Shown piece after piece: positions 6,443 to 37,180 of a DNA stretch of 64,000 bases; position 1 is the first letter of the stretch; every line of letters starts with the position of its first letter. Location: sequence record NC_047754.1; one strand, written 5' to 3'. Made by a program: the position numbers and the translations under genes. The notes beneath the pieces were generated by a model. That model saw nothing but the letters and a program-made list of their open reading frames with translations. It did no database searches and was not told the DNA's origin. Source of the stretch: Escherichia phage phiAPCEc03.

Positions 6443-6443
6443 C

Positions 6444-7568: not shown

Positions 7569-7581
7569 AATAAAATTTTAG

Positions 7582-7634: not shown

Positions 7635-7641
7635 ATTAAAT

Positions 7642-9798: not shown

Positions 9799-9810
9799 TC
9801 AAGGATCGCT

Positions 9811-10392
9811 ATGACTAATAAAAAAGAAGAAAAGACTAACCTGTTTCACTCCATTCGCCAATCTAACGAGTATACCTTTTTCTTTGATGAAGAACTCGGT
9901 CCGCCGGATGAATACCGTGATTTAGCAATGGTACTTATGCAGGCAAATGAGGACGATGAAATTAATCTGATGATTAATGGTCCGGGTGGTTATGTTGATA
10001 CTGCTGCACAGTTATCTAACTTAATTGCTAATTGCCGTGGAACAGTTATAGGGCATCTGATTGGTCCTAGTGCTTCTGCTTACTGCACAATTTTCCTATC
10101 TTGTCATGGATGGGTAGTACATCCACATGCTACGCTAATGGGACACACGTTCTCTGGCGGGTTCTGTGAGAAGGGTCAAGAAATTAAGAAAGCCTATGAA
10201 TCTTACAACAAGTTCGTAGAAGATATGATGCTAGATGTCTACTATCCATTCTTCTCAATAGATGAAATAGACGAGATGGTAAAAGACAACAAAAATATCT
10301 ATCTAGATAGCAAGGAAATCCATAAGCGTATTGAAATCTTGGCAAAATATCGATCTGAGCAATATAATAAAGCCCAGTTACCTCAATTCTAG
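9811..10392 (+). CDS. ClpP-like serine peptidase
   Basis: INGPGG motif, Ser in GPSASAY and His in GHTFSGG spaced as in ClpP. Confidence 0.5.
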   Translation: MTNKKEEKTNLFHSIRQSNEYTFFFDEELGPPDEYRDLAMVLMQANEDDEINLMINGPGGYVDTAAQLSNLIANCRGTVIGHLIGPSASAYCTIFLSCHGWVVHPHATLMGHTFSGGFCEKGQEIKKAYESYNKFVEDMMLDVYYPFFSIDEIDEMVKDNKNIYLDSKEIHKRIEILAKYRSEQYNKAQLPQF

Positions 10393-20960: not shown

Positions 20961-21845
20961 ATGTATAACTTTAAAGATAAACTAAGACAAAATGCTGGCA
21001 AAACAAAACCTAAAGAGAACAATAATGTTCCTAATGCCAAAGTATTACCATTTCCAGAACTATCTCAAGAAGAAAAAGATAAGTTAGCATTTATGTTTGA
21101 TGCCCTTCTAGGGCTAAATGGACGTTTATACTCCTCACTCAATATTAATGAGAAACGTCTAGTAGAGATGTTCTGTAAGCGTTATCAAGTTACTTCAAAG
21201 GGTAATTCTTATAAAGAAGGTGAGAAAGCATTTACAGTCTTAAAGATTAGCGCATATGCACATCGTTTCTTAGTTTATGGGTTACAGATGGAATACTTCA
21301 CCATCCCATCATTTAGCTCTTTCCATATCTTTGAAGATGAACGAATGAATATTGATGATCTCTATGGGGATACGTACAAATACTCAGGAAGTCCATTCCA
21401 TGATGCATTAAGGAGCTACCCAACTAACTACTTACCAGTTAGGGCATCACAAGGTAAAGCTAGCATCTTCGCTGTTTACTCAGGATCTAAAGCATCGGAT
21501 CTAGAAACTTATATATTTAAAGAGCGTAAATCTGTACTTCCAGATGAAGCATTGTATAATAATCCATTGCTTCCAGAAAAAGAACCAGAGAAGATTGATG
21601 TAACCCCACCAATCCCATCTGATTCCCAGTATTTAATTTATGAGAAACAAGTTAAGTTATCCCTAGAAATTGGGTTAGTTACACCGCTTGCTGCAGCATT
21701 CATCAATAGGTATCTAGAAATTCCTGACGAGTTCCACACACGTTATAATACGAATATTCAGATAACGGATGAACTAATAGCTATTGCAAAAAGTACGCCT
21801 ACAGATACTGAGGCGTATCAAAAAGCATACCAAGAGTTACTATAA
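20961..21845 (+). CDS. hypothetical protein
   Basis: 294-aa ORF with GGAGA RBS; last gene before the repeat-rich noncoding region. Confidence 0.6.
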   Translation: MYNFKDKLRQNAGKTKPKENNNVPNAKVLPFPELSQEEKDKLAFMFDALLGLNGRLYSSLNINEKRLVEMFCKRYQVTSKGNSYKEGEKAFTVLKISAYAHRFLVYGLQMEYFTIPSFSSFHIFEDERMNIDDLYGDTYKYSGSPFHDALRSYPTNYLPVRASQGKASIFAVYSGSKASDLETYIFKERKSVLPDEALYNNPLLPEKEPEKIDVTPPIPSDSQYLIYEKQVKLSLEIGLVTPLAAAFINRYLEIPDEFHTRYNTNIQITDELIAIAKSTPTDTEAYQKAYQELL

Positions 21846-22382
21846 TATTCTGCAAGTCTCGGTGCACAATACCTGTACCGAGACAATAATACAAACTCTC
21901 GTTGACAGATAGCTAAATGTATGTTATCATAACTCTATGAGTTAATAGAATTAACCATTTAGAGTTGCCACACAGAAGGTGTGGTGGTTCAGTAATTTAA
22001 AATTACTAACTTGTAGCGGAGGATACGGAGCGACAGGACAAGTTAATAAGTAATTTAATATAAATTGCTAGAAACATCACGAGACCTTCTGGCGGGGGCA
22101 AAGCTCTATATGAGAACCCTGGGGGATCTTATATTTAAAATAAAAGTAAAACTTTTGACCACATAATTTACATTCAAGATGATACACCTGTTGCCGCTCA
22201 TCTGCTAGGATGGCACAACACTTTCTTCTAGACTCCTAAGTTTTTATGAAAACTCTAGTCAACTCAGGCGGTTTTCATTGTTCCTAGAAACTCTAGCAAT
22301 AGGCGGTTAATACAGGGCGGTTATAGGGAGGGCGGTTATTTCTAGGAGACATTTTTTGAAAACACATTTCCAGAAATTACTA

Positions 22383-22981
22383 TCGGATTTGCACATTGTG
22401 TTTCTAGAAATTTATGGTCGGATTTGCACAAACGCCTAAGTTTTCAGGAACTCTTACTCTCCTGAAAATGGCAGCATTATTTCGGGCCGAAGGCCCGTGA
22501 TTGCCTGAGTTTTTAGAGTCACAATAATTTTCACTTGTCAAGCTATTTTGCCCCATTTAGCTAATAAAATTTTACTTTATCTGCACTTATCTCAAATTAA
22601 CCCAAATCTTCTCAACTCTTCCCCAAAATCCCCGCAAATCAGGTGCTCCGCACCAAACATGCACCTCTCCCACAGTTCCCCCAAGTTTCTCTCGCTCTCT
22701 CAACTTCTCCCCAAACTCATACAATCACACACCCTCCAATCGAAGTCACAAAAATCTTGTCGGATTCGCACAAATAAACCCCTGTCGGATTTGCACATAT
22801 TCTAGCTAATTCCACAGGATTGATGCGCAGCATCGGATTGCTGTAGTTTTTAGGAAAATTCATTGTCGGATTTGCACACTATAAAAATTTTTCGGGTCGG
22901 ATTTGCACACTACTAAAAATTGTCGGATTCGCACATACACGCCCACGCGTAACACCCGTGGAGCAATGTCGGATTTGCACA
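22383..22981 (+). repeat. iteron-like array: 8 direct copies of 13-bp TCGGATTYGCACA
   Basis: Copies start at 22383, 22428, 22759, 22785, 22866, 22897, 22923 and 22969, all in the same orientation within a noncoding region. Confidence 0.85.
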
Positions 22982-23033
22982 AAAGCGCAGGGCAATTGCC
23001 CTGCCCGCCTGAATGCAAATACAAATGAGAATC

Positions 23034-23165
23034 ATTCGCATTTAAAAAGCGGAATGAGAATGATAATGATTCGCATTTAAAAAGTGAAATGAAAATTATT
23101 CAGGAAGTGAAACGATTCTCATTTAAAAAGTGGAATGCAAATGATAGTGATTCGCATTTAAGAAC
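23034..23165 (+). repeat. 4 direct copies of ATTCGCATTTAAAAAG-containing unit
   Basis: Units at about 23034, 23069, 23115 and 23150, period about 35-45 bp. Confidence 0.75.
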
Positions 23166-23191
23166 GGAAGTGAGAAACACTGTTATTTAAG

Positions 23192-23273
23192 TTATCCACA
23201 GACTTATTAACCGCATAATTTGACTTGACAGAATCCTAGCCATTTTGAGGCGTTATTAACAGACTTATCCACA
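23192..23273 (+). promoter_or_regulatory. DnaA-box-like 9-mers (TTATCCACA), two copies
   Basis: Exact TTATCCACA at 23192-23200 and 23265-23273. Confidence 0.55.
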
Positions 23274-23442
23274 GCTTATCCTACTGTATAAATATACAGT
23301 ATTCCTACGCAGTGAATAATTCTAATATAGTCCTAAAACGTCCTAGATCGCATTCTAACGCGTTTAATTTTGGTGGGGATACTAAAACAAGGGGTTATCC
23401 GGTTGCAGGCGTGAAAAACGGGGATCTGCTCCCCGCTTGTTG

Positions 23443-23637
23443 TCAGTCCGGTAATTGATGCGTGATCTTCTCCTCCTCCCCGTAGGAATCGACCAAATGT
23501 TGATAGTAACCATCGGCATCATAAATAACGCTATCATACTCGCCACGCTCGACCGCTTGCCGGTTTTCCGGCGTATCGGGCACGTAAAAAACATCAACCA
23601 TTGTACTGGTTTTAGTCACAATAATTTTATTGCTCAT
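23443..23637 (-). CDS. hypothetical small protein (pre-early-like block)
   Basis: 64-aa ORF with AGGGG RBS-like sequence. Confidence 0.5.
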   Translation of the reverse strand: MSNKIIVTKTSTMVDVFYVPDTPENRQAVERGEYDSVIYDADGYYQHLVDSYGEEEKITHQLPD

Positions 23638-23662
23638 AATAACCCCTAGTAAATATATAATT

Positions 23663-24007
23663 TCATTGTGCTACCTTTCGAAAAGCTGTTTCAATACTTT
23701 CCGCAGTTGATTGAATATACGCGCCTTTCATGATCAGGCGCTCAGTGCATATCTTACGGAAAATATTAATAAAATCATCTTCATTTTCTGCAATTAATGC
23801 TTCACCCATAACCTGAACGTCGCAAGATGCAAAGGTCAAAAATTGAAACGCTAGTTCACGGGCAACGACCGCATTGATTTTATAATGCGCCTTGCCCTCA
23901 TAAATATTAATAACGCCCTTGTAAGCTGGGGAAAGCTGGTTTAAATAGTTTGCTAGTAATGCCGGACGGCAATTAGCAACAAAGCGGTTGCCCTCATAAA
24001 TAACCAT
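23663..24007 (-). CDS. hypothetical protein
   Basis: ORF with GGGAGG RBS before internal ATG at 24007 (MVIYEGNRF); the listed ORF extends to 24022. Confidence 0.5.
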   Translation of the reverse strand: MVIYEGNRFVANCRPALLANYLNQLSPAYKGVINIYEGKAHYKINAVVARELAFQFLTFASCDVQVMGEALIAENEDDFINIFRKICTERLIMKGAYIQSTAESIETAFRKVAQ

Positions 24008-24130
24008 TTTATAACCTCCCAATCAGGTAACCAGATAAAAGCATAAAAATCCCCAGTAAAAGGGGATCATTCTTAAATAAGGTGGCGGTAAAACCGCCAA
24101 CCATTGCAAGGAGAATAACAATAGCGCTTT

Positions 24131-24343
24131 TCATAGTACCCCACGAAACGCAGCGTAAAAGGTGGCAAAGTGTTTAACTGTTTCAGCGATCACGTTGCCG
24201 CGCTTGTCAAATTTTTTCTCGGTAACACGAAAGGCATTTTTGTTACGTGCTACATATTCGATTTTACAATCTTCCCGCTCGAACGTGTTAACATCCACCA
24301 GCTTAAAGCCTTTCGAACGTGCAAGAGAAACGTTGCGGATCAT
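24131..24343 (-). CDS. hypothetical basic protein
   Basis: 70-aa ORF. Confidence 0.5.
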   Translation of the reverse strand: MIRNVSLARSKGFKLVDVNTFEREDCKIEYVARNKNAFRVTEKKFDKRGNVIAETVKHFATFYAAFRGVL

Positions 24344-24345
24344 TT

Positions 24346-24501
24346 TTATTCTCCTTTACTAGTCATGCAGCCCAGCAGATAAGAAAATACAGCGATACCC
24401 GCGCCAATAATAACCGCGTGAACGCCGAAAGCTATGGCAAAAAGTGATAAAATAGCGCCCAAGATACCTGCCAGAATAGCTCGAAAAATAACCATTTTCA
24501 T
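24346..24501 (-). CDS. small hydrophobic membrane peptide (51 aa)
   Basis: ORF MKMVIFRAILAGILGAILSLFAIAFGVHAVIIGAGIAVF, GGAG RBS; below the ORF-track cutoff. Confidence 0.4.
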   Translation of the reverse strand: MKMVIFRAILAGILGAILSLFAIAFGVHAVIIGAGIAVFSYLLGCMTSKGE

Positions 24502-24541
24502 TCTCCTAGTTAGCGGGGCGAAAATAACGCCCCGTTATTAC

Positions 24542-24772
24542 TTACATTAAAACAATTTTAGCGGCTTGTTTTTTGGTGCAATGTTCCGCCTTCAGGGTAT
24601 CCAGCAAAAAGCCAGCCGTTTGCTGGTCAATCTTATCAGCGTTATACAATTCTTGGATGGTGTTATAAGTTTTAGCAATGCCATATTCTTGCACCATTTC
24701 GTGAATAATAACGCGGTTAGATACCCAGCCTTGAGCGGTGAACAGATGACTAGCAGAAGAATAAGCAACCAT
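24542..24772 (-). CDS. hypothetical protein
   Basis: GGAGG RBS before internal ATG (MVAYSSASH); the listed ORF extends to 24829. Confidence 0.5.
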   Translation of the reverse strand: MVAYSSASHLFTAQGWVSNRVIIHEMVQEYGIAKTYNTIQELYNADKIDQQTAGFLLDTLKAEHCTKKQAAKIVLM

Positions 24773-24889
24773 TTTAAGCCTCCAATTTTTGGGAAAATTT
24801 TCAACCGTCCTCGAACGGTGTAAGGGCATTATAACAAAAAAGGCCGCCGATTATGGCGACCTTTACAAAACTTTACATTAGATTATTTA

Positions 24890-25123
24890 TTACTCGCTTT
24901 CGGTGCTAGTGGTAAAAGTAGAAATATCAATACCTTTCACCATTTCATCAATCATCTCAGCAATGTTAAAAGATTGCACCATTTCTAACATAGCCGCTTC
25001 CATAGCTGCACCTGCTACCGCTTTCGCCTTTTGGTTACTCGGGGCGTACTGGTCAACCGCTACACTCAGCAGGTTAGCGATCACTACCCGACCAATCGGC
25101 GTATCAATATAGCCTTTAATCAT
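24890..25123 (-). CDS. hypothetical protein
   Basis: 77-aa ORF; start overlaps the upstream stop (ATGA), suggesting coupling. Confidence 0.5.
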   Translation of the reverse strand: MIKGYIDTPIGRVVIANLLSVAVDQYAPSNQKAKAVAGAAMEAAMLEMVQSFNIAEMIDEMVKGIDISTFTTSTESE

Positions 25124-25866
25124 GAAGGGCGCTTTTTAGCCGCTACTTTCGTAATTTGAGTCAGTGCAATTTTACCCGCTTCCAGTTTTGCAGCGTTTAC
25201 AACAGCGGATTTATTAGCGGCAACGATGTTAGCAATCTTGGTCATAGTATTTTTTCCTTTATTTTCAGTAGTTTGAGCGTTAGAATTTACAGCATGTTTT
25301 TCCGTGTTGTCAATAGGCTGATCTTCATCTTTCCAGAAAGAAAAACCAGCACTTTCGATGTCGCCATCATATACATATGGGTATAGCTCCCGTGGTAGCA
25401 AAAAATTGCCATCGTCATCAAAAGCCATTACAGCCGCCAGACGATACCCGTCACCAATTGACCGATTCCAGCCAACTGATAAATAACGCCAAAATGAATC
25501 GAGAAAATTTTCAACGTCATAAAGATCATTGGGGTTGGCCCCATAGTTTTCTATTGAAAAAACTTCTAAGCCCGCCCCAGTATCATAGGCTTTTACTATA
25601 CTACCTTTTACAATTATGAAATCGGTATCCGGCCCCCTGCTAGTAAGCAGGTGATTATCTCGATTATATAAAACAAGCGTTGCCCCTTGCTTATACAGTT
25701 GCAAAAAACTACTCATATCATAGGCATCGAAATCATCAAAAAAATTTTGGTGAATATCTTCGGACTTGTTAACAAAGTGTTTAATGCTGGTTGTTCTGCT
25801 ACCATCCAGCAGGTTACGCAGCGCACCTTTTAAGACGGTTGCGTTATCTGGTTTATATAGCCTCAT
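25120..25866 (-). CDS. hypothetical protein with Ala/Lys-rich C-terminal tail
   Basis: 248-aa ORF, first gene of the minus-strand block. Confidence 0.6.
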   Translation of the reverse strand: MRLYKPDNATVLKGALRNLLDGSRTTSIKHFVNKSEDIHQNFFDDFDAYDMSSFLQLYKQGATLVLYNRDNHLLTSRGPDTDFIIVKGSIVKAYDTGAGLEVFSIENYGANPNDLYDVENFLDSFWRYLSVGWNRSIGDGYRLAAVMAFDDDGNFLLPRELYPYVYDGDIESAGFSFWKDEDQPIDNTEKHAVNSNAQTTENKGKNTMTKIANIVAANKSAVVNAAKLEAGKIALTQITKVAAKKRPS

Positions 25867-26158
25867 TTGTTCGGCCCCCTCGTTAATCGGTGAGTGAATG
25901 ATAAGGGTAATTTTCTAGCATAGGCAAAGATTATTTTACTTTTTTATTTTCCTTGCCTAACGCCTATTTTTATGCTAACCGCGCAGCGGTGTACTAAAGA
26001 GCAAAACACGGCGAAGCCACCAGGCCGTCGCATTGAGGCTTTACTTTAATATTACCTTGTAGCGTTCAGCTCGTTAGAAAGCGTTTTAGGCCGCTTAAAA
26101 TTGATTGCAGTCGTTAACACTACCTTTTTACCCTGTGTATTTATACAGTAGAATAACC

Positions 26159-26540
26159 TGTGGATAAGTCTGTGCAAAAGTCCCTATATCGCCGCCTATC
26201 GTGTCAAATTATTTTGTGCTGTGGATAACGTTGTGGATAACTTAAATGATAGTGGTTCTCACTTAGGCCGATAGTTTCTTATAGTTATTATTTCTTATAA
26301 TTATTATTTCTCATTAATTTATAAGTATATTATATATCATGAAATAGTTAGTTGGCTAATGAGATTTTCCGTGATTAATAGTCTGCTAATAATTTAAGCC
26401 GTTACAATCCACCAGCATGATTATCATCCTAGCAATTATTAGTCTGCTATCTTTCCGATGCATACTAACAGATAAAAGTCAATTAATTTATTTTATAAAA
26501 TAAGTAGTTATCCACTGGAAAATAGAAGTCAAGTGGATAA
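26159..26540 (+). promoter_or_regulatory. DnaA-box-like 9-mer cluster, mostly in reverse orientation
   Basis: TGTGGATAA at 26159-26167, 26220-26228 and 26232-26240; TTATCCACT at 26507-26515 and AGTGGATAA at 26531-26539. Confidence 0.55.
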
Positions 26541-26987
26541 CTAGGAAAATTTCATTTTTGCTTCTGGGGATAAGTTATCAACAAGGCTAGAATGCGCCTA
26601 AAACGCCCTAGAACGCGATGAAGTTTTTAGCCATCTCATCATAAAGGGATAAGCCGTTTATCGCTGTCACGAGCTTTTTAGGTTTTGTCAAGTAGGGCAA
26701 AGTAAATATAAATGAAAAAATTACTTGCCTATTTGCTATGTTTTGTGGTATTCGCGCGCCCGTTTCTTTCAATTTTAGGCCGTCGCCGCACGCCGTCCGG
26801 TGGATCGTGTCTTTACGTTTCTTTACAAAAATAAGGTTGCGCCATTTTCGGGAATCCCCTATTATTTATCTCGTAGGGCGGCAATGACGAACTACACGGC
26901 GGGAAGTTTACCACCACGCTCTTTAAAAATTGGGTACATCTTAAAGCCTATCGGCGGTAAACTTATTCATTATAAGGAATCGACGAT

Positions 26988-27191
26988 ATGAAACAAACGC
27001 TTTTGATCACTGGCAAGCCTATTAAGGCACTAGATATCAAAACAAAAAACTTGTTGACAGTAGCACAAAGATCAGTAAAATATAGATTCACGCAGTACAA
27101 GAAAGGTCGCCAGCAAGGTTTAGAAATGATCTGGCGAAATATTATGATTGACTTGAAAGAAAATCATAAAAAACTGCAAAAAACCGCTTGA
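26988..27191 (+). CDS. hypothetical basic protein
   Basis: 67-aa ORF with AAGGA RBS. Confidence 0.4.
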   Translation: MKQTLLITGKPIKALDIKTKNLLTVAQRSVKYRFTQYKKGRQQGLEMIWRNIMIDLKENHKKLQKTA

Positions 27192-27216
27192 CAACCTAGC
27201 CGATAGGTTTTAAGAT
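27188..27216 (+). promoter_or_regulatory. sigma70-like promoter
   Basis: -35 TTGACA, 17-bp spacer, -10 TAAGAT. Confidence 0.4.
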
Positions 27217-27420
27217 GTACCCAGTTCGATAAGAGCGATAACTTGATAAAATTTGACGGTCGGTGCTTACCATAATGCATCCCGCCCCCCTAACTGGGAT
27301 ATAGCGGCCTACGTGGAGTTCTTTAAATCGATTATACTGGCGAGCGGATTGTTACTTATTACCTGCTACTTTCTAGCAGGTAATGCGGAACAATCCACCA
27401 AATAACTCGGAGTTTATATT

Positions 27421-27672
27421 ATGCAAAACGTTATTACCGCGCCTAAAATTGGTCAATCCGTCTTCATTCCTTTCGTTACTAAAACGGATGAATTAACCGG
27501 AAAGGCTGAACGCATTAAAGGTGCGGCGCTTATGCCGTTCGATACAATCGACGCGGTATATGCTGAAAATGAACGTAGTAACAACGGCAAACCTGTTTTT
27601 AACGTTCGCGTTAAATCCGGCGACGTTGTAAAGGTTGTTCAACGTAACGAAAAATGGGAAGCTGTTCTGTAA
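27421..27672 (+). CDS. hypothetical protein
   Basis: 83-aa ORF with GGAG RBS. Confidence 0.6.
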   Translation: MQNVITAPKIGQSVFIPFVTKTDELTGKAERIKGAALMPFDTIDAVYAENERSNNGKPVFNVRVKSGDVVKVVQRNEKWEAVL

Positions 27673-27770
27673 TTTAGTGTTAACTTTATATCCCCCTTAT
27701 TTCAGGGGGATATAACGATTAACATTAAGTTAATCTAATCCCTTAAATTAAACTAATAGGAGTTTATATC

Positions 27771-28178
27771 ATGACTAACGTTAAAACCGCAAAATTCGCA
27801 TGGAATGAAGAAAACACTCAGAAAGCTGTTTCCATGTATCAGCAGTTAATTAATGAAAACGGTTTAGATTTCGCAAATAGAGACGGTTTAAAAGAGATTG
27901 CAAAAGCAGTTGGCGCGGCTTCCCCTGTATCCGTTCGCTCAAAATTGACCAGTGCAAAAGCCTATCAAAAAAGCGATAAGCCGCGTAAAGTTGGTGGCGG
28001 TAGCTCTGTGCGTAAAGCTCACTATGTGCGCGTTATCGCTAAACATGCTATTGATTCCGGCATTATCAAAGACGCCGACGATCTGGCAAGTCTGGAAAGT
28101 GCAAAACTTGAAACGCTGGACGCAGTAGCGCAACTGTTAGGCGTTGCCGATGAAGTAAAACAAGCCGCAGGCGAATAA
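27771..28178 (+). CDS. A2: A2-like pre-early protein (tentative)
   Basis: 135-aa ORF next to the A1-like gene; size matches what I recall for T5 A2; assignment rests on size and synteny only. Confidence 0.4.
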   Translation: MTNVKTAKFAWNEENTQKAVSMYQQLINENGLDFANRDGLKEIAKAVGAASPVSVRSKLTSAKAYQKSDKPRKVGGGSSVRKAHYVRVIAKHAIDSGIIKDADDLASLESAKLETLDAVAQLLGVADEVKQAAGE

Positions 28179-28269
28179 TAGTTATACCTTGCCCCCTTTT
28201 AGTGAGGGGGCAATAATATAACTGTTTAGCGATAGTTATTTTCTTCCCTTAAATCAGGAGTTTTAAAAA

Positions 28270-28467
28270 ATGATTTTCTTTCCTACTGAATCATTAATTC
28301 TAGGCTTGTTTATTATGGCGGCCTCATTATTATTTGCTTATTTTCAAAATGATTTAGATTCATATTATTTTAAACGTAAATCTAAGTTAGCAAAACGTTT
28401 GGGCTTGCTTTGTTTTATCGCTGCCGTTGCTTGTGGTGTTAGTTCTAGCCTAATGCCTTTAAATTAA
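28270..28467 (+). CDS. small membrane protein
   Basis: 65-aa ORF with two hydrophobic segments. Confidence 0.5.
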   Translation: MIFFPTESLILGLFIMAASLLFAYFQNDLDSYYFKRKSKLAKRLGLLCFIAAVACGVSSSLMPLN

Positions 28468-28557
28468 TGTTGCAAATTATAACGCCTATTATTCGAGGCG
28501 TTATATTTGGCAATATTGCCGTTATTAATCTAATCCCTTTAATGGAGTTTTATTACT

Positions 28558-30228
28558 ATGATTATTTCCGCAGAAAAACAAACCGTTATCCTGAAAATGG
28601 CCGCTGACTTTAATTTCTATGGTAAACGTCTGCGCGCTACTAAACTGGAAGTCTGCGACGATATATCAAAAGCGGTCTACGATACAACGAAGCATTCAAC
28701 CGCTATCTGCGACTGGCTGGAAGCAAATAAACCAGCTAAACCGAAAGCGGCAAAAGTAGCAAAAGCCATTAAAAACGATGAGCGCCCAGAAGCGGCGGGG
28801 ATTGTTTCTAGTACGGTTGAGCAATGGGAAGTAAAACAGGGTAAACGCTTTATTATTACGTCGATTCAGAATAATACTTTCCCACATAAAAACTTTTTAG
28901 CAAGTCTGGAAAAATTCGCTGAATATATCGGTGCTGATTTGCTTGTTTCTAAGTATATTTATAATAAAAACGGCTTCCAGAATGGAGAAGGTGCAGACGG
29001 TATCAAATACGATCCCGCATTTGATAAATATATTTGCAGCAAAAACGTGTTTTTAAATAACCGCCGTTTTGCTTTCATGGCTGAAATTAATGTTTTGCCT
29101 ACCGCAGACTATCCGCTTTCAGGATTTGCAGAAACTGCAACGGCTTTAAATATTGAAGGGCTGGCAATTGGTCACGCTAAAATTACCGCTGAAAGCGTGC
29201 CAGCTTTAAAAGGTGAAGTAGTGCGCCGTATGTATTCAACCGGAACGGCAACGCTCAAAAACTACATTCAGCAGAAAGCAGGACAAAAAGCCGAGGCGCT
29301 GCATAACTTCGGTGCGCTTATAGTTGAGTTCGACGACGACGGGGAATTTTTTGTTCGCCAGCTTGAAACAATGGACGAAAGCGGGGTGTTTTATGATCTG
29401 AACGTTTGCGCTACTCCTGCCGGATGCTATGAGACATCGGGGCATGTTTTAGGCTTGCAGTATGGCGATATTCACGCCGAAAAATTAGATGAGGAGTGCG
29501 CCGCCGCATCTTGGGGGCATGGTGATACTTATGGGCTAGTAGATATTCTTAAACCAAAATATCAGTTTGTGCATGACGTTCACGATTTTACATCCCGCAA
29601 TCATCATAACCGCGCATCCGGTGTATTCCTAGCTAAACAATACGCCGCCGGACGTGATAAAGTTCTGGATGATCTTATCGATACGGGGCGCGTGCTGGAA
29701 TCAATGGAACGTGATTTTAGTCAAACAATCATTGTTGAATCTAATCACGATTTGGCGCTATCCCGTTGGCTTGATGATCGTAATGCTAACATCAAAGACG
29801 ATCCAGCAAACGCCGAGTTATATCACCGCCTGAATGCTGCAATTTACGCGGCAATCGGTGAACACGACGAAACGTTTAACGTGCTAGATTATGCGTTGCG
29901 CAAGGTTGCAGGTTGTGAATTTAACGCCATTTTCCTGACCACTGATCAATCTTTCAAGATTGCAGGCATTGAATGCGGCGTACACGGTCACAATGGCATT
30001 AACGGCAGTCGTGGCAATCCTAAACAATTTAAAAAATTGGGCAAGTTAAACACGGGGCATACCCATACCGCCAGCATTTATGGCGGCGTATATACCGCTG
30101 GCGTTGCTGGTAGTCTGGATATGGGTTACAACGTTGGCGCGTCAAGCTGGACGCAAACGCATTTAATTACCTATGCAAATGGTCAACGCACTTTGATTGA
30201 CTTTAAAAACGGTAAATTCTTTGCATAA
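28558..30228 (+). CDS. A1: A1-like pre-early protein, metallophosphoesterase-family nuclease
   Basis: 556 aa; calcineurin-like motifs GDIH, SNHD, GVHGHNG and GHTHT in canonical order; size matches T5 A1. Confidence 0.7.
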   Translation: MIISAEKQTVILKMAADFNFYGKRLRATKLEVCDDISKAVYDTTKHSTAICDWLEANKPAKPKAAKVAKAIKNDERPEAAGIVSSTVEQWEVKQGKRFIITSIQNNTFPHKNFLASLEKFAEYIGADLLVSKYIYNKNGFQNGEGADGIKYDPAFDKYICSKNVFLNNRRFAFMAEINVLPTADYPLSGFAETATALNIEGLAIGHAKITAESVPALKGEVVRRMYSTGTATLKNYIQQKAGQKAEALHNFGALIVEFDDDGEFFVRQLETMDESGVFYDLNVCATPAGCYETSGHVLGLQYGDIHAEKLDEECAAASWGHGDTYGLVDILKPKYQFVHDVHDFTSRNHHNRASGVFLAKQYAAGRDKVLDDLIDTGRVLESMERDFSQTIIVESNHDLALSRWLDDRNANIKDDPANAELYHRLNAAIYAAIGEHDETFNVLDYALRKVAGCEFNAIFLTTDQSFKIAGIECGVHGHNGINGSRGNPKQFKKLGKLNTGHTHTASIYGGVYTAGVAGSLDMGYNVGASSWTQTHLITYANGQRTLIDFKNGKFFA

Positions 30229-30284
30229 TTAAATTATTCCCCTAGCGGCTTGAAATATAGTCGCTATTACAGGAGTCACAAAAA

Positions 30285-30542
30285 ATGAAAGTTACATTAC
30301 CCAAAACATTGGACGAAAAAGTATTCATTTCACCGGATGAAATGGAATCCGATAAAGTTTACAGCTTCGGGCCTATCCTAGCCGCCAAAACTAATACTGA
30401 TGGTATTATTTCCGTCGATTCCCGTGATAATGATGTTGTTCCTTTTGATGACTATGGCGCTTTTTATGAATGGCTAAGTGATAATAATCTACCCGTAAAC
30501 GGTGAATTAACGCCGTACCAAATGCAGATTATTATCAAATAA
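30285..30542 (+). CDS. hypothetical acidic protein
   Basis: 85-aa ORF with AGGAG RBS. Confidence 0.55.
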   Translation: MKVTLPKTLDEKVFISPDEMESDKVYSFGPILAAKTNTDGIISVDSRDNDVVPFDDYGAFYEWLSDNNLPVNGELTPYQMQIIIK

Positions 30543-30580
30543 ATTAAATTCCTTATTAAACTAACTGGAGTTTTATAAAT

Positions 30581-30973
30581 ATGAAAAAGCAAAATATTCC
30601 ATTTGATCGCGCTCAGTCTTCCATTGTTCTGGTTTATTCTAATGGCGAACGTTACCACGTCGAGGCGGGGCACGTTATTGATGATCTATTAGATTTCAAT
30701 GACGCTTTACAGGTTACAACATTCGCATATACGCAGGGCAAACTAACCAGCCATATTAAAGCAAAAGGCGTTTATGTTGATACGGTGAAGCAAGAAACGA
30801 TTATCATCGACGCCGTAAAATCCGGCCTTGCCTTTGCAGTTGTCGCGCCTTGCCCCGCTTGCCTTGATGATCAATTGATTTCTGCAAAAGTATATACTTG
30901 TGCTGGTATTCGTTCCAGCGTATCAGGTGAGGATGTTAGTTTTATTGCCGATGCGTTGGCTTATGGTCTTTAA
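30581..30973 (+). CDS. hypothetical protein
   Basis: 130-aa ORF with GGAG RBS. Confidence 0.6.
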   Translation: MKKQNIPFDRAQSSIVLVYSNGERYHVEAGHVIDDLLDFNDALQVTTFAYTQGKLTSHIKAKGVYVDTVKQETIIIDAVKSGLAFAVVAPCPACLDDQLISAKVYTCAGIRSSVSGEDVSFIADALAYGL

Positions 30974-31053
30974 TAGTTAATTTATTATTACCCGCTTATA
31001 AATAGCGGGTAATGCTGAAATAACTAAATCCCTTTAATGGAGAACGTAACAAA

Positions 31054-31788
31054 ATGAATCAAGTTAAAACGAATATTACCCGTAATTTCCCGCATATTTC
31101 CCGCGTCATGATTTGGGATCTGGACGGCACTATCATTAATTCTTTCCATCGTGTAGCGCTTTGCTTTGATAGTGAGGGCAATTTAGATTTAAATAAGTAT
31201 AAAAATGAAGCCTGCAAACATCATTTAATAATGCAAGATACTTTATTGCCATTAGTTGAATACATGCGCCAGTGCATGAATGACGCAAATACTTTAAACA
31301 TTATTTGCACCGCTCGACTAATGAGCAAGTCGGACTATTATTATTTGCGCAAACAAGGCTTGCGCGGTCGTGGTAATAGTAATATCCGCGTGTTTTCCCG
31401 TGATACACTGCATAAATATTTTGAGGCTGATAAAGTTAGCGAAATATACCACAGCAAGGACGCAGTATATAAATCTTATTATTTTGAATTATTCAAACAA
31501 CTATACCCAAACGCTGATTTTACAATGATTGACGATCATAAAGGCGTACTATCAGCGGCGGCATCATACGGATTTAAAACGCTGGACGCGCAAGCCGTTA
31601 ACGATATTCTATCAATCGGCGTGACATTGATAGGTGAAACCTTTATTGATGAATCCCTCGATGATGATAATGATTATCAATTCCTAGCTGACCGTTTAAA
31701 ATTATGCTGGGAAGGTATGACCGAGGAAGAACGCGCAGAATATAGTTGCAGCCCGCAACAATATATTGAGAAATTAAAAGTTGCGTAA
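31054..31788 (+). CDS. dmp: HAD-family 5-prime-deoxyribonucleotidase
   Basis: 244 aa with HAD motif I (WDLDGTI) near the N-terminus; size and position match T5 dmp. Confidence 0.6.
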   Translation: MNQVKTNITRNFPHISRVMIWDLDGTIINSFHRVALCFDSEGNLDLNKYKNEACKHHLIMQDTLLPLVEYMRQCMNDANTLNIICTARLMSKSDYYYLRKQGLRGRGNSNIRVFSRDTLHKYFEADKVSEIYHSKDAVYKSYYFELFKQLYPNADFTMIDDHKGVLSAAASYGFKTLDAQAVNDILSIGVTLIGETFIDESLDDDNDYQFLADRLKLCWEGMTEEERAEYSCSPQQYIEKLKVA

Positions 31789-31963
31789 TAATTAAAGTTG
31801 AAATAGTTTCATCCTGCAATTAAAATGGTTGCAGGATGAAACAGTTACCCTGCTAATAGTAACGGGGGTGGCGGTTAGCAGACTAAGTATTTCCGCCGGA
31901 GGCAGTGAGCACATCTTCATGTGTAATCTTAGGAAATTTGGCAAAAAGGTTAATTAGCGCTAA

Positions 31964-32461
31964 TTAATTATGGTTTGCAAACTCACCGTGGTAATGCTCC
32001 CTGGCTTTTCTAAGTTCTTTTTCAGCCTGCTCAAGAGTTTTAAAAGTTCCTATGGTAATTCTATTACCATTTACACGTAGTTTTGCTTCGAACTTTCCCT
32101 CCCCGCGTTTATATACTCCCTTAACCCCTGTAGACTCATTCTTCCATCCCGAAGAGTTTTTTCCATTCTCTGCATTTGTTGCTTTACGTAAGTTATTCCA
32201 CCTATTGTTGAAGGGGTCTTGATCTTTGTGATCAATGAGAAATTCACCTGGGTCTTCTCCTGTCATGTATAGATACGCTACCCGATGGGCCTTATATAAC
32301 CCATTATTACCCATTGATAGGGATATTCCTGAACTATTTCTACTACCTGCTGGTTTACCTTTACGACTCCCTGAATTCCAAGTAAATATACCTGCCTCTG
32401 GATCATAGTCATATTTTTTCTTATATTCTTCTAATGATAGAAGAGGTTTATGATTTGCCAT
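31964..32461 (-). CDS. HNH homing endonuclease with AP2-like domain
   Basis: Core AHRVAYLY...IDHKD...NNRWNNL, C-terminal GVYKRGEGKFEAKLRV; paralog of 16419-16955. Confidence 0.6.
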   Translation of the reverse strand: MANHKPLLSLEEYKKKYDYDPEAGIFTWNSGSRKGKPAGSRNSSGISLSMGNNGLYKAHRVAYLYMTGEDPGEFLIDHKDQDPFNNRWNNLRKATNAENGKNSSGWKNESTGVKGVYKRGEGKFEAKLRVNGNRITIGTFKTLEQAEKELRKAREHYHGEFANHN

Positions 32462-32666
32462 TTATCTTGAATCTCCTCCGAGAACTTCTTGAGCCATCAT
32501 TCCACTCCCGCTCAAACTCCGCACGTTTCTCTTCAAACTTCCGCTCCCTTTCCGCAATCTCCCGCGATACTTCCGCAATATATTTACGATGGCTGTCGAT
32601 AGCCGCAGTCATTCCGAAAATTCCCGCAAGTATCCCGATAATAAAAGCAATTATAATACTAAACAT
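32448..32666 (-). CDS. small membrane protein
   Basis: 72 aa, N-terminal transmembrane helix then charged tail. Confidence 0.45.
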   Translation of the reverse strand: MFSIIIAFIIGILAGIFGMTAAIDSHRKYIAEVSREIAERERKFEEKRAEFEREWNDGSRSSRRRFKINGKS

Positions 32667-32853
32667 CTAATTCCCTCTCAATTTGCAGAATACGGGTACT
32701 ATCACAACGTTGCAGTTCTACTAATTTTTCTATAGCAAATTGTTGCTGCTTTACCTGGGCCTCTAGAGTTTTTAGGCGAACATACGCGTTATAAGAAACA
32801 ATGAAAGTTGCCCAGACTAGTATTACTATTAGTGTAGCTACTACTTCCATCAT
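32659..32853 (-). CDS. small membrane protein
   Basis: 64 aa, N-terminal transmembrane helix. Confidence 0.45.
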   Translation of the reverse strand: MMEVVATLIVILVWATFIVSYNAYVRLKTLEAQVKQQQFAIEKLVELQRCDSTRILQIERELDV

Positions 32854-33261
32854 TTACGTTTCTCCAGTAATAAAATTTCAACTCTAGCCAAGTGATTATC
32901 TAAAATACATTGTCCGATAATAACAACCCCTAGTAATGCAATAATTACCCATTCCATTAAATCCACCCCGCCATAGCTGCTAACCAAAAACCTACGAAAA
33001 TAAAGAATAGGATAGTTCCGAACCCAAAACTATTTATCCAACTCTCATACACCTCTCCGCGTCTATTCTTTCTTTTGTTTGACATATCTTTCGTGCTCCC
33101 ATAAATGTGATATTTAAAATATTTTATAGTTTGTGTATAACCGACCGTGCTTGTGAACTCCTAGAAGGACTCCTATTTTTCTTACCTAGTGGTTTCTGCC
33201 AATATACCATCCAAGAAATAAAAAATTTAGTTTACTTGGATGTCTTTTTGTTTTATACTAA

Positions 33262-33528
33262 TTACAGGTAATTAGATTGCTCTAGTTTAAATTTACAATC
33301 ACCATATTTAAGGTCAAACTGACTGAGATCCCACCACCCAAATTTAGTACGGAGCTGTACTACTGGAAAGCGATCTCCCTTAATACGAACTTTTTGAACC
33401 TTGAGACCGTAATGTTCTTCTCCCGCACCACCAAAAGATTTTACAAATCCCGTACAAAATGGTTTGGGAGCAGGTGCACAACCAGATAACATAACTACGG
33501 CAACTAGTGCAATTACAAACTTTTTCAT
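33262..33528 (-). CDS. llp: lipoprotein, Llp-like (receptor-blocking lytic conversion lipoprotein)
   Basis: Signal peptide with lipobox LSGC; divergent from the adjacent receptor-binding protein gene as in T5 llp/oad. Confidence 0.6.
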   Translation of the reverse strand: MKKFVIALVAVVMLSGCAPAPKPFCTGFVKSFGGAGEEHYGLKVQKVRIKGDRFPVVQLRTKFGWWDLSQFDLKYGDCKFKLEQSNYL

Positions 33529-33613
33529 ATTTATCTCTCCATTTCTAATTTATGAATCTATTATAGCAAAATAGAGGGATGAAAGCAAATACATTTTTAT
33601 AATAGGAGATTAT

Positions 33614-35371
33614 ATGGGTTTTTTCGCTGGAAAGTATAGCGATGGTAAGACCGTACTATCTTTAAATACTGAATCTGGGGGTGACATTAATCGTCACTAT
33701 AGTCCAAATAATAATAGTATTTTTCATAGTGATATGCCATTTGTCCTAGTTGATGGTACTTACGAGGCTGGGTTAGGTGATGCCGGAAATGGGTTTTTCG
33801 TATGTCAGATGCCTCCTGATATAGTAAATATTAAATCTAATGATCCTGGTAGAGTTATACTAACTGCTATTGAAATTAACGGCACTCACAGAGCTTTTCT
33901 TAATGGTACTCAGAGTAAGGTTGGTCAAACTATAGTTGCCACTCAAGCTGATCCCTTTAGATCTTTTGCTAGTGTTTCTCAAACTAGTGGATTTGCATTT
34001 GGTAATAGTCTAGCATCTGGAACTTATAATTATAATTCATCGATAGGGCACGAAGAATCTATCTCTAGGAGTGGCACAGGGGGTACTACATTACATAGTA
34101 CCTACCATGGGATAGTTAGGCCCGGTGCGGGAGCTCCTGTAGGTGTTACTGTTGCAGAAGCTTTTGCACAATTAGGGTTTCCTACTAACAGTAGCACAGT
34201 ACCTGTAGATGGGAATAACCCGTACTATTGGGATCCTGGATGGATGTCGCCTCTAGGAGCAGCACATAGAGGGCATGATTGGTTTTATGTTTGCAATTCT
34301 AATATACGTGGGTACGGTGGGGTTAGGCAAGGGCTCCCAGGTAATGTAAATACTATGTACCACGACGGCGGGAACAGATTTGTTTGTAGGGGATCTACTA
34401 CTAATCTAGCTAACCAGTCGGGTGACTCTACAATACTACAGGATTGGTATAATATAACTCCTACTAAGGTTATTTGGTATGTTCTTAACTTAAGGTACTC
34501 AAATGGCGGTATGAGTATTTCCGGCAATCCCTTTACTGGTTCTGATATTCTTATATCTCCTTCTAATTTCATAATTAAAGGGGTAAGTCTCCCGAATACT
34601 GGATATAAATTTATAAATCAGAATGCTTTTGGTAACCTAGGTTACCGTCCTGATATGGAGTATATAGGGAATAACGCAGCGTATACTGGGGTTTTTGGGG
34701 ATACCACGGCAAGGTGTGAACTTGTAGGGTCTAGTAATGGAGGATTATGGTCTCCTGTAGACTATGGTGGAGCTAAATCACAGATTAGCATTTATAGGTT
34801 CGGAGTAGGTAAACAGTGGTATGTAAACTCTAACGATAATACTATTGGTAACGAGCATGGAGTTGTTTGGGGACCATCAGCAGTTCCACTGCGACTTTTT
34901 GGTGGAAATGTAGGTAGTTCTTATATGGGAGATGATATTACTCCTAGCTACCCAGGAACGGGTGATAGATACGTTGGTTTATCAACTATTGGGCTAGGTA
35001 TACCAGGCGGAAATGCTACAGTAATTCTTACTACTGAAGTTATATCAGGTAATCTTAATTGTGCGGGTGTTCCAGCTAATACATGGAATAACGGTGTGTT
35101 TCAAGTGCAAGGAAGAAGAGCATATAGCTATAGCGGCGGGGATGCAATATTCCACCAGATTTTAACGCTACCTGTGGGCTATCTAGTACCTTTTCATACT
35201 ACATCTGCTTTTAGATATACACCTAACAATGCTCTAAGTAGAAACAGTTTTATATATACAGTTAAAAATCTAGGAAATGGAAATGTGGAGTTAGGGGTAG
35301 TTATGCACGTGAGTTTGGGTAGTGCAGTTTTCCTACCTAGATTAAGAGTAACAGTTCAACGCCTTACCTAA
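33614..35371 (+). CDS. receptor-binding tail protein (pb5/Hrs-like)
   Basis: 585-aa Gly/Asn-rich protein adjacent and divergent to llp; call by synteny. Confidence 0.55.
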
Positions 35372-35381: not shown

Positions 35382-35864
35382 ATGGCAAATGATGTATTAG
35401 TACCAGATCTTATGTCCCCTGAAGGGATGGATGTGATTGAAGCTTATTTACAGTGCGGCAGCGATGTGCCTTCTGCCGCACGTAGTCTTGGAATGTCCGA
35501 AATTGCTTTCCGAGATATTATGAATCGTAGTGAAGTTAAGAACTACTTAAATGATATTTTTATGGAAAGTGGATTCCGTAACAGGGATCGTTTGTTTGGT
35601 GTTCTAGATGAAGTTATTAAACGTAAACTAGAGGAACTGGAAGAAACTGGCATGGGTTCTGACCAGGATATTATGGATATTCTCTGGAAAGCACACAAGA
35701 TGAAGATGGAAGAGATGAAAATGATGGTAGAGTTAGAAAAAGCTAAAGCTGCCGTTCGAGCTCCTGCTAATCAGACCAATATCCAGAATAACATTATTGC
35801 TGGAGCTGGGGATCAAAACTACATGGACTTAATTACTTCCCTGGCTACTGGAGGTAAGAAATAA
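35382..35864 (+). CDS. putative terminase small subunit
   Basis: 160 aa, immediately upstream of and abutting the large terminase gene. Confidence 0.4.
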
Positions 35865-37180
35865 TGGAAGTATCAAGACCCTACGTTAACACAGTAGATG
35901 TTATTGATTTCGGAATAGACAAACGTTTCTTTCGTTTACCTGTTTCAGGAATACTAGCACAAGAAGGTATTACACCTAATGGTCCTCAAATAGCGATTAT
36001 CAATGCGCTAGAAGACCCTAGACATCGTTTTGTAACGGCGTGTGTATCGCGCCGTGTGGGCAAGTCCTTTATAGCATATACACTTGGATTCCTAAAATTG
36101 CTGGAACCCAATGTGAAGGTACTAGTAGTTGCTCCTAACTACTCACTGGCCAACATCGGATGGTCTCAGATTCGTGGTCTTATTAAGAAGTATGGCCTAC
36201 AAACTGAACGTGAGAACGCTAAAGATAAAGAGATTGAGTTAGCTAATGGTTCTCTGTTTAAACTAGCTTCCGCGGCTCAGGCTGACTCCGCAGTTGGACG
36301 TTCATATGATTTTATCATTTTCGATGAGGCGGCAATTTCCGATGTGGGTGGTGATGCCTTTAGGGTTCAGTTACGTCCTACTCTAGATAAACCTAATTCT
36401 AAAGCTCTATTTATTTCCACCCCTCGTGGAGGTAACTGGTTTAAAGAGTTTTACGCCTATGGATTTGATGATACGTTACCTAACTGGGTGTCTATTCATG
36501 GTACATACCGTGATAACCCTCGTGCTGACCTGAATGACATTGAGGAAGCACGTCGTACAGTTAGTAAAAACTACTTCCGCCAGGAATACGAGGCCGACTT
36601 CTCTGTATTCGAAGGCCAGATCTTTGATACCTTTAATGCTATCGATCATGTTAAAGACCTCAAAGGTATGCGTCACTTCTTTAAAGATGATGAAGCATTC
36701 GAAACATTGCTTGGTATTGACGTTGGTTATCGTGATCCTACAGCAGTTCTTACTATTAAGTACCACTATGATACAGATACCTACTATGTATTAGAAGAGT
36801 ACCAGCAGGCAGAGAAAACTACAGCGCAACATGCTGCGTATATTCAGCACTGTATAGATCGTTATAACGTAGATCGTATCTTCGTTGACTCCGCGGCTGC
36901 CCAGTTCCGTCAGGACTTAGCTTATGAACATGAAATTGCATCAGCTCCAGCTAAAAAATCTGTCCTAGACGGTCTAGCATGCTTGCAAGCGCTATTCCAG
37001 CAAGGCAAGATTATTGTAGATGCTTCATGTTCCTCATTAATCCATGCGTTGCAGAACTATAAATGGGACTTCCAAGAAGGTGAAGAAAAATTATCACGTG
37101 AAAAACCACGTCATGATGCTAACTCTCACCTCTGTGATGCGCTGCGCTATGGAATTTACTCTATTTCCCGTGGTAAATAA
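35864..37180 (+). CDS. terminase large subunit
   Basis: 438 aa; Walker A VSRRVGKS and Walker B DFIIFDEAA. Confidence 0.8.
   Translation: MEVSRPYVNTVDVIDFGIDKRFFRLPVSGILAQEGITPNGPQIAIINALEDPRHRFVTACVSRRVGKSFIAYTLGFLKLLEPNVKVLVVAPNYSLANIGWSQIRGLIKKYGLQTERENAKDKEIELANGSLFKLASAAQADSAVGRSYDFIIFDEAAISDVGGDAFRVQLRPTLDKPNSKALFISTPRGGNWFKEFYAYGFDDTLPNWVSIHGTYRDNPRADLNDIEEARRTVSKNYFRQEYEADFSVFEGQIFDTFNAIDHVKDLKGMRHFFKDDEAFETLLGIDVGYRDPTAVLTIKYHYDTDTYYVLEEYQQAEKTTAQHAAYIQHCIDRYNVDRIFVDSAAAQFRQDLAYEHEIASAPAKKSVLDGLACLQALFQQGKIIVDASCSSLIHALQNYKWDFQEGEEKLSREKPRHDANSHLCDALRYGIYSISRGK

Follow-up and report, generated by a model that had tools for sequence, protein, structure and literature searches.

In the assembly of Escherichia phage phiAPCEc03, a long direct terminal repeat of the T5 type is very probably collapsed to one copy

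The window analysed here is the whole stretch of 64,000 nucleotides from Escherichia phage phiAPCEc03 (NC_047754.1), and the coordinates of its features are collected in Table 1. Two divergent sets of pre-early genes were located in the same order as in T5, with dmp, T5.002, A1, T5.005, A2 and T5.007 to T5.009 on one strand and T5.011 to T5.017 on the other, and dmp, A1 and A2, the genes of the first-step-transfer module, show 96-98% amino acid identity to their T5 counterparts. Pfam gave no matches for A1, A2, dmp or pb5 and detected only DUF7566, HNH_3 and a lipoprotein signal. The sequence-only reading had placed A1, A2, dmp and repeat-rich non-coding DNA together in one segment, and this was borne out by tblastn, by PHROGs and by repeats far above chance. 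The flanks that it had named were also found, with the T5.018 homolog, beyond which early genes continue leftward, on one side and the lipoprotein, pb5, terS and terL of the llp/receptor-binding/terminase end on the other. In contrast to T5, hegG (T5.010), T5.003 and T5.016 are missing, hegG being absent from the central non-coding region, and an A6/A7 run divides T5.011 in two. Just beyond the predicted left terminus there is an additional HNH gene, the pb5 homolog shares no more than 30% identity with that of T5, and the gene at the llp position is unrelated.

Table 1. Features of the window in and around the pre-early segment; a slash marks a junction or nick position.
Feature	Position	Strand	Basis or remark
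T5.018 homolog, first gene past the left repeat in T5	20961..21845	+	98% aa identity; T5 annotation
Unique non-coding DNA between T5.018 homolog and repeat	21846..22515		Aligns to T5 10220-10935, outside the annotated T5 repeat
Array of eight TCGGATTYGCACA repeats (T5 DRD repeats)	22383..22981	+	Exact copies counted
Inner junction 22515/22516	22506..22525		Inner end of left repeat and physical right genome end, predicted by homology
Predicted direct terminal repeat (first-step-transfer/pre-early region), present once	22516..31911		9,396 bp; T5 1..10219 reversed; BLAST and boundary alignments with T5, BF23, MM-1, Sepoy
T5 '7.9%' nick-site sequence, conserved	22977..23004	+	Match to T5
Two 62-nt direct repeats (T5 DRE)	23034..23176	+	84% identity; copies at 23034/23115
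Inverted-repeat arm IRD'-spacer-IRC'	23168..23299		Two DnaA/DnaA-like box pairs 3 nt apart
Leftward pre-early gene set	23443..25866	-	T5.017,.015,.014,.013,.012,.011 homologs
T5.017 homolog	23443..23637	-	tblastn with T5 proteins
T5.015 homolog	23663..24022	-	tblastn with T5 proteins
T5.014 homolog, Ung-related endonuclease	24131..24343	-	100% aa identity
T5.013 homolog	24346..24501	-	tblastn with T5 proteins
T5.012 homolog	24542..24829	-	tblastn with T5 proteins
T5.011/DUF7566 homolog, split in two	24890..25123 + 25120..25866	-	DUF7566 by Pfam
Central non-coding region between divergent pre-early sets (T5 repeat regions 1/2)	25867..26883		Davison, bioRxiv 10.1101/866236, section 3.3
Partner arm IRC-spacer-IRD	26133..26264		Four consensus DnaA boxes, two pairs
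Rightward pre-early gene set, T5.009 to dmp	26884..31788	+	tblastn, PHROGs
T5.009 homolog	within 26884..31788	+	tblastn with T5 proteins
T5.008 homolog	26988..27191	+	tblastn with T5 proteins
T5.007 homolog	27421..27672	+	tblastn with T5 proteins
A2	27771..28178	+	98% aa identity to T5; PHROGs 'DNA binding protein'
T5.005 membrane protein homolog	28270..28467	+	tblastn with T5 proteins
A1	28558..30228	+	96% aa identity to T5; PHROGs 'DNA transfer protein'
85-aa ORF	30285..30542	+	Rightward pre-early set
T5.002 homolog	30581..30973	+	tblastn with T5 proteins
dmp	31054..31788	+	97% aa identity to T5
Outer junction 31911/31912	31902..31921		Physical left genome end and start of right repeat, predicted by homology
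HNH homing endonuclease, outside repeat	31964..32461	-	PF13392 at 1.7e-13; phrog_99
T5.162,.161,.160,.159 homologs (small membrane proteins)	32448..33085	-	Unique DNA preceding the right repeat in T5
Lipoprotein at llp position	33262..33528	-	PF08139
Receptor-binding protein pb5 homolog	33614..35371	+	tblastn with T5 proteins
terS	35382..35864	+	98% aa identity to T5
terL	35864..37180	+	99.8% aa identity to T5

The non-coding DNA at the inner end of the segment has the injection-stop architecture known from T5, with an IRD'-spacer-IRC' arm, an inverted partner arm, about eight DnaA boxes arranged in pairs, and repeats of the DRD and DRE types. The DRD sequence TCGGATTYGCACA occurs in eight exact copies, compared with 0.09 expected at up to one mismatch in the whole window, and six of these copies lie inside and two outside the repeat end located below; the DRD array of T5 likewise overruns its repeat end (Davison, bioRxiv 10.1101/866236, section 3.3.1). 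In the unique stretch adjoining the T5.018 homolog, the TCGGATTTGCACA motif occurs twice, and a GC hairpin is present at 22484-22499. Each arm of the inverted repeat is 132 nt long (23168-23299 and 26133-26264), and the two arms contain six of the ten consensus DnaA boxes of the window and two variant boxes, arranged in pairs 3 nt apart. The anatomy described for T5 agrees, as it also includes paired DnaA or DnaA-like boxes, inverted arms, DRD and DRE repeats and an overrunning array (Davison, bioRxiv 10.1101/866236, section 3.3), and following the same account (section 3.3.3) the arm at 23168-23299 is a candidate injection stop signal. The sequence of the T5 '7.9%' nick site, GCACAAAA/GCGCAGGGCAATTGCCCTGC, is conserved, as its first 16 nt match T5 exactly around the annotated major single-chain interruption (9748/9749) and the 28 nt match with the exception of one nucleotide. 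The stretch GCACAAAA/GCGCAGGG at 22977-22992, identical to T5 in sequence, displays the Pu/GCGC consensus of this site, and a nick would be expected between 22984 and 22985 on the + strand of the window, which corresponds to the minus strand of T5. No Rfam matches were obtained at gathering thresholds between 21000 and 34000. A scan for promoters and terminators indicated a modest excess (54 versus 34 promoter-like and 22 versus 10 terminator-like sites), which is too unspecific to identify pre-early promoters.

The whole window is a Tequintavirus (T5-like) genome in reverse T5 orientation. Nucleotide identity to T5 across the window is 76-97% in colinear blocks and reaches 92-94% to several Tequintavirus records, and genome-wide similarity and gene order, compared with T5 and related phages, place the phage in Tequintavirus (Demerecviridae). 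In a BLAST comparison with the reverse complement of T5, the window runs parallel to T5 from 37,840 to base 5 and then from T5 111,504 to 78,487; from this jump it follows that the neighbour of the inner left repeat and the neighbour of the right repeat start flank one and the same repeat copy. In T5 (NC_005859) the repeats are annotated at 1..10219 and 111532..121750, and both copies map onto the same interval of the window, in which the repeat is written once. Self-BLAST of the 64-kb window revealed no second copy of the block; apart from the inverted 132-nt arms and the 62-nt direct repeats described above, it detected only a tandem repeat of 75 nt at 57012-57240. The terminase is of the T5 type, TerL and TerS being 99.8% and 98% identical in amino acids to those of T5. 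As read from gene identities, synteny, repeat anatomy and boundary positions carried over by homology, the order of the window is exactly the one that T5 would show if its two terminal repeats were fused into one, and the interval 22516-31911 is very probably a long direct terminal repeat of the T5 type, of which a self-closed assembly has kept a single copy. The T5 synteny, the absence of a second copy in the window and the T5-like terminase thus support the earlier proposal of a circularly permuted assembly with the repeat collapsed to one copy, and the comparison with T5 and relatives that had been suggested as a check fits a collapsed repeat.

To set the limits of the repeat, the window was aligned with genomes whose ends have been mapped or annotated, among them T5, BF23, Sepoy, MM-1 and Shivani, and the boundaries were carried over by homology at 85-92% nucleotide identity. 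The inner repeat ends of T5 (10219), BF23 (9743, PhageTerm), MM-1 (10407) and Sepoy (10295, PhageTerm) fall in one alignment column, which corresponds to the junction 22515/22516 (..GAGTTTTTA/GAGTCACAAT..), and the records NBSal002, NBSal003 and NBSal005 open exactly at the equivalent position. At the outer junction 31911/31912 (..GGCAGTGAGCA/CATCTTCATG..), which lies 123 nt beyond the dmp stop codon, T5 base 1 aligned to window position 31911 and the first bases of BF23 and MM-1 to 31910; the Shivani repeat starts 121 nt beyond its dmp stop, the BF23 dmp stop lies 122 nt from the left end of BF23, and the records 8sent1748 and 3sent1 terminate at the equivalent of 31912. Read as reverse complement, the sequence ending at 31911 starts with TGCTCACTGCC and the sequence starting at 22516 ends with ATTATTGTGACTC. 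T5-like sequence continues over both junctions into unique flanks, and both repeat/unique junctions are in register with those of T5, BF23, MM-1, Sepoy and Shivani, as expected for a long direct terminal repeat. Deposited boundaries vary, those of pork29 and chee158 corresponding to about 22722 and about 31796-31818 and that of Kenya-K18 to about 31878, so that either some annotations are imprecise or the ends vary by 30-200 nt between lineages. These three sets of limits, which are 30-200 nt off the consensus of T5, BF23, Sepoy, MM-1 and Shivani, were taken as less reliable because the records state no method for them, and they were set aside. When T5, the window, BF23, MM-1 and Sepoy were compared, no recognition motif common to both cut sites was found, and the ends therefore carry no mark in the sequence. 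The pattern NNN(C/T)CAC, seen at both 5' ends in T5 and in the window, was discarded as a chance 4-mer that is not kept in BF23, MM-1 and Sepoy.

The sequence-only reading had taken 21846-33261 as a likely collapsed repeat, with termini probably at or near these positions. These limits are too wide, since by homology the ends map 670 nt (left) and 1,350 nt (right) inside, and 21846-33261 is instead a block reaching from one intergenic region to another. What it contains in excess of the repeat is unique non-coding DNA, the gene for the HNH homing endonuclease and four genes for small membrane proteins, all of them absent from the T5 repeat. That the terminal repeat nevertheless covers all of 21846-33261, or at least passes 31911 to take in the HNH and small membrane-protein genes, is highly improbable. 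The repeat is indeed not equally long in all relatives (chee158, 8.7 kb; BF23, 9.7 kb; T5, 10.2 kb; MM-1, 10.4 kb), and the TCGGATTTGCACA array runs 130 nt past 22516. However, the reference genomes differ in repeat length through internal indels and share their boundary columns, the T5 array overruns its repeat end as well, 8sent1748 and 3sent1 end right at 31912, and the HNH insertion, which is shared by Shivani and Kenya-K18, is annotated outside the repeat in both. The HNH gene itself has no counterpart in T5, and BLAST gave no T5 match for the block 31940-32468. HNH proteins assist some cos terminases, and the gene lies 53 nt from the predicted left cut site. Still, it is exceedingly doubtful that it goes beyond the role of a selfish homing element and, for example, shifts or assists terminus formation, in which case HNH-carrying T5-like phages would have repeat ends off the T5 positions and another repeat length.

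Other readings of the single copy concern the nature of the DNA. A contig obtained from intracellular replicative circles or concatemers, in which a single repeat between unit genomes would be real and not a collapse, would have an identical topology, and electron microscopy has shown T5 circles that correspond to the genome less one repeat (Davison, bioRxiv 10.1101/866236, section 3.4). As virion DNA is the template from which phage genomes are mostly sequenced, such an origin is very unlikely, and it would alter neither the position of the termini nor the nature of the segment. A true rearrangement, or a headful-packaged, circularly permuted genome lacking fixed ends or terminal duplication of the block, has nothing specific in its favour and is barely conceivable, since both junctions reproduce the two repeat/unique junctions of T5 to the base, the terminase is essentially that of T5, and relatives with about 90% identity have PhageTerm termini at homologous positions (PMC10644984).

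With a collapsed terminal repeat as the preferred reading, the genome in the virion would be linear, running from the base equivalent to 31911 leftward in the window to the base equivalent to 22516, with the 9.4 kb repeat at both ends. Because the two copies would be identical, an assembler would connect the path from the late genes into the repeat with the path from the repeat into the early genes and report a circle opened at an arbitrary point, and the pre-early module would therefore appear with early genes on one side and late genes on the other. Such a circular topology also occurs naturally, in the T5 replicative circles reported to contain one genome less one repeat. The presence of the repeat at both ends of virion DNA, entry in two steps, nicking and the terminase route to two copies are deduced from T5 biology. 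According to this model, the segment would be the first-step-transfer DNA and the dmp end would lead into the cell, with entry halting at a repeat-rich injection stop region that would comprise the TCGGATTTGCACA array, the 62-nt repeats, the DnaA-box arm at 23168-23299 and probably the partner arm at 26133-26264. The pre-early genes, in their two divergent sets, would be transcribed by host RNA polymerase; A1 and A2 would then let the remaining genome in, and dmp would dispose of host-derived nucleotides.

Comparison with deposited genomes shows how common this arrangement is. The junction sequences, injection-stop repeats, DnaA-box arms and 7.9% nick-site sequence match those of T5, whereas the repeat is 9,396 bp long here and 10,219 bp in T5. 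In BF23 (OR083247) and Sepoy (MK728825), whose termini come from PhageTerm, the repeats end in the same columns as in T5 and the window, but differ in length (9,743 and 10,295 bp, respectively) through internal gene content; both records give two copies, and the left terminal 110 nt of Sepoy are diverged. vB_Eco_mar004NP2 (LR027384), slur09, KS_S14 and BB1, on the other hand, show at 89-93% identity the same unbroken order of early genes, pre-early block and llp/pb5/terminase, with one repeat copy per record of about 105-113 kb; they are not different in kind from the window, and only the opening point and the mosaic gene content vary. Searching with A1 retrieved 441 records but only 517 places, and therefore the repeat is present as a single copy in at least 83% of the T5-like records in GenBank. 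Such records with dmp, A1 and A2 'in the late region' have been remarked on (Davison, bioRxiv 10.1101/866236, section 2.3), and assemblers are known to choose the first base of these phages arbitrarily, repeat coverage being twice the average (PhageTerm, PMC5557969). The T5-identical terminase and the fixed, conserved boundaries, taken over by homology, point to probable membership in the long direct-terminal-repeat class of T5 and SPO1, which is defined by read-start statistics (PhageTerm, PMC5557969).

The 'internal' look of the repeat is an effect of assemblers folding two identical ends into one, which is ordinary and well documented. Collapse of a T5-like terminal repeat is an already known phenomenon and the established picture of T5 biology is unchanged; the value of the result is practical rather than conceptual. 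In the virion, the genome would exceed the collapsed contig by about 9.4 kb and each pre-early gene would occur twice, and genes should be numbered from the dmp end. With the boundaries corrected to 22516 and 31911, the record could be re-opened and completed properly, and the HNH gene and the four genes for small membrane proteins fall outside the DNA predicted to enter the cell first.

When the complete genome of T5 (NC_005859) is reverse-complemented, the window aligns to it colinearly: window 32-23446 pairs with T5 37,840 down to 9,264, the alignment goes on until base 5 of T5 is reached at window 31907, and homology restarts with T5 111,504 at window 31939 and extends to T5 78,487 at window 64000, as for merged repeats. 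Both terminal repeats of T5 (1-10,219 and 111,532-121,750), which are identical copies, map by alignment to a single window interval, and T5-like sequence persists across the inner junction (22380-22515 matches T5 10,220-10,369) and the outer junction (31912-31939 matches T5 111,504-111,531) into the unique flanks. At the sequence level, this is the signature of a merged repeat pair, and together with the synteny with T5 and relatives it supports the sequence-only reading, which had taken 21846-33261 for what is likely a terminal repeat collapsed to one copy. Segment and flanks are matched at 80-95% nucleotide identity by several hundred T5-like records (Demerecviridae, mostly Tequintavirus and Epseptimavirus).

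The window was aligned to four genomes with annotated repeat ends (T5, BF23, Sepoy, and MM-1); the ends of BF23 come from PhageTerm (PMC10644984) and those of Sepoy are given as 'predicted by PhageTerm'. In all four, the inner boundary (the inner end of the left repeat and physical right genome end) fell in the same alignment column, between ...GCCTGAGTTTTTA and GAG(C/T)CACA..., equivalent to the step from window 22515 to 22516, and the counterpart of 22516 is the very first base of the NBSal002, NBSal003, and NBSal005 records. At 22484-22499, 17 nt outside this boundary, there is a perfect GC hairpin, GGGCCGAAGGCCC, which is kept in T5, BF23, MM-1, and Sepoy. At the outer boundary (the physical left genome end and start of the right repeat), base 1 of T5 aligned with window 31911 and base 1 of BF23 and MM-1 with 31910. 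From the dmp stop to the genome end there are 122-123 nt in these three phages, and in the window 31788 + 123 gives 31911. The annotated right repeat of Shivani, which has the same HNH gene downstream as the window, begins 121 nt beyond the dmp stop and leaves the HNH gene outside, and the 8sent1748 and 3sent1 records terminate exactly at the equivalent of 31912. Because both boundaries coincide with repeat ends and record ends of relatives, we infer that the repeat spans window 22516-31911 (9,396 bp). The limits 21846 and 33261 do enclose this repeat, but they run from the stop codon of one gene to the end of another and are not repeat ends. A search for a motif present at both cut sites found none, and the pork29, chee158, and Kenya-K18 records annotate ends 30-200 nt off the consensus. 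Both boundaries are accordingly transferred by homology and may be off by a few nucleotides or, in the worst case, by some 200 nt.

That the repeat truly spans all of 21846-33261 is contradicted by the coinciding boundary columns of the relatives and by HNH-carrying relatives, which annotate this gene outside the repeat. On the left, 21846-22515 is unique non-coding DNA that includes two TCGGATTTGCACA motif copies; in T5, the DRD repeat region likewise extends past the repeat end (Davison, bioRxiv 10.1101/866236, section 3.3.1). On the right, 31912-33261 is likewise unique DNA, with the HNH gene and counterparts of four T5 genes for small membrane proteins (T5.159-.162), which lie upstream of the right repeat in T5. 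The HNH insertion sits 53 nt beyond the inferred left end of the genome; it is missing from T5 and pork29 and present at the same site in about two dozen relatives, including Shivani, Kenya-K18, 8sent1748, ESCO40, VAH1, NBSal003, and SSP1. The conservation of both T5 junctions at base level and a T5-identical terminase (TerL 99.8%, TerS 98%) contradict both a true rearrangement and headful permutation. Assembly of the contig from replicative DNA would yield the same sequence as collapse; we regard it as very improbable, and such an origin would leave the position of the ends as concluded.

Collapse would arise because two identical 9.4-kb ends are not resolvable with short reads, so that reads running from the late genes into the repeat start and from the repeat end into the early genes would join as a circle, opened arbitrarily. 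Assemblers give such phages a random starting base, and the repeat has twice the average coverage (PhageTerm, PMC5557969); the same cause is named for the position of dmp, A1, and A2 'in the late region' of GenBank entries for T5-like phages (Davison, bioRxiv 10.1101/866236, section 2.3). An A1 query against the phage collection matched 441 records at only 517 places, and therefore at least 83% of T5-like records hold the repeat once. A collapsed T5-type terminal repeat is a known phenomenon, routinely met.

Coordinates of features in the segment and its flanks
Feature	Position	Strand	Remark
T5.018 homolog	20961..21845		left flank; first gene beyond T5's left repeat
62-nt direct repeats (DRE), n=2	starting 23034 and 23115		
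132-nt inverted repeat	23168-23299 vs 26133-26264		
A2	27771..28178	+	98% aa identity to T5
A1	28558..30228	+	96% aa identity to T5
dmp	31054..31788	+	97% aa identity to T5
T5.002,.005,.007,.008,.009 homologs	in segment	+	
T5.011-.015,.017 homologs	in segment	-	
HNH homing endonuclease (HNH_3)	31964..32461	-	PF13392 at 1.7e-13
Lipoprotein at llp position	33262..33528		right flank
pb5 homolog	33614..35371		right flank

The dmp, A1, and A2 homologs named beforehand were all found in the segment (96-98% amino acid identity to T5), and the predicted flanks were recovered too: the T5.018 homolog with early genes further left, and the lipoprotein, the pb5 homolog, terS, and terL on the right. By sequence comparison, the segment is the first-step-transfer/terminal-repeat region of T5 in every respect tested, and the differences are ordinary mosaic ones. 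The repeat lacks hegG (T5.010), T5.003, and T5.016 (at 25867-26883 and 30285..30542), T5.003 being replaced by an 85-aa ORF (30285..30542) as in MM-1 and pork29. The T5.011/DUF7566 homolog (24890..25866, -) is split into two ORFs (248 aa and 77 aa) by a frameshift near 25120-25130, a run of A6 where T5 and BF23 carry A7; MM-1 carries the same A6 allele. The shorter run may reflect an error in sequencing the homopolymer, a genuine mutation, or slippage. Despite the close identity of the neighboring terS and terL, the receptor-binding protein (585 aa) is just 30% identical to T5 pb5 and the lipoprotein next to it shows none to T5 Llp; judged by its genes, 33262..35371 is a swapped receptor module, a non-T5 receptor-binding/llp pair whose receptor is probably not FhuA. 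Elsewhere, a tandem duplication (75-nt period, 86% identity) lies at 57012-57240, in a region matching the L-shaped tail fibre gene where T5 identity falls.

The repeat-rich non-coding DNA noticed earlier is real and comprises a DRD array, 62-nt direct repeats, a 132-nt inverted repeat, and DnaA boxes. Eight exact copies of the injection-stop motif TCGGATTYGCACA lie at 22383-22981; by chance, 0.09 copies with up to one mismatch would be expected across the entire window. Of the ten consensus DnaA boxes in the window, six fall inside the two 132-nt arms and form, with two variant boxes, four pairs with 3-nt spacing. Two adjacent near-copies of the DRD motif, TCGGATTTGCACC and TAGGATTTGCACA, were seen far from the repeat at 63525-63552 (+), in a region colinear with T5 D13 (about T5 79.0 kb). 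Window 22977-23004 (+), which corresponds in strand to the nicked strand of T5, preserves the sequence of the major 7.9% nick site of T5, GCACAAAA followed across the nick by GCGCAGGG..., and is a candidate nick site; also written with GCGCAGGGCAATTGCCCTGC after GCACAAAA, the stretch equals T5 in its first 16 nt and differs at 1 of 28 nt overall. It contains a GC-rich palindrome that a terminator scan also flags on the - strand.

By analogy with T5, the DNA would enter with the dmp end leading and come to a halt where the injection stop lies, host polymerase would express the pre-early genes in their two divergent sets, and A1 and A2 would enable second-step transfer. Replicative circles of T5, consisting of the genome minus one repeat, have been seen by electron microscopy (Davison, bioRxiv 10.1101/866236, section 3.4), and extension synthesis from staggered nicks is described for the long-repeat class (PhageTerm introduction, PMC5557969). 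Circle formation and nicking may proceed likewise in phiAPCEc03, and the duplicated ends would be remade by terminase from fixed positions.
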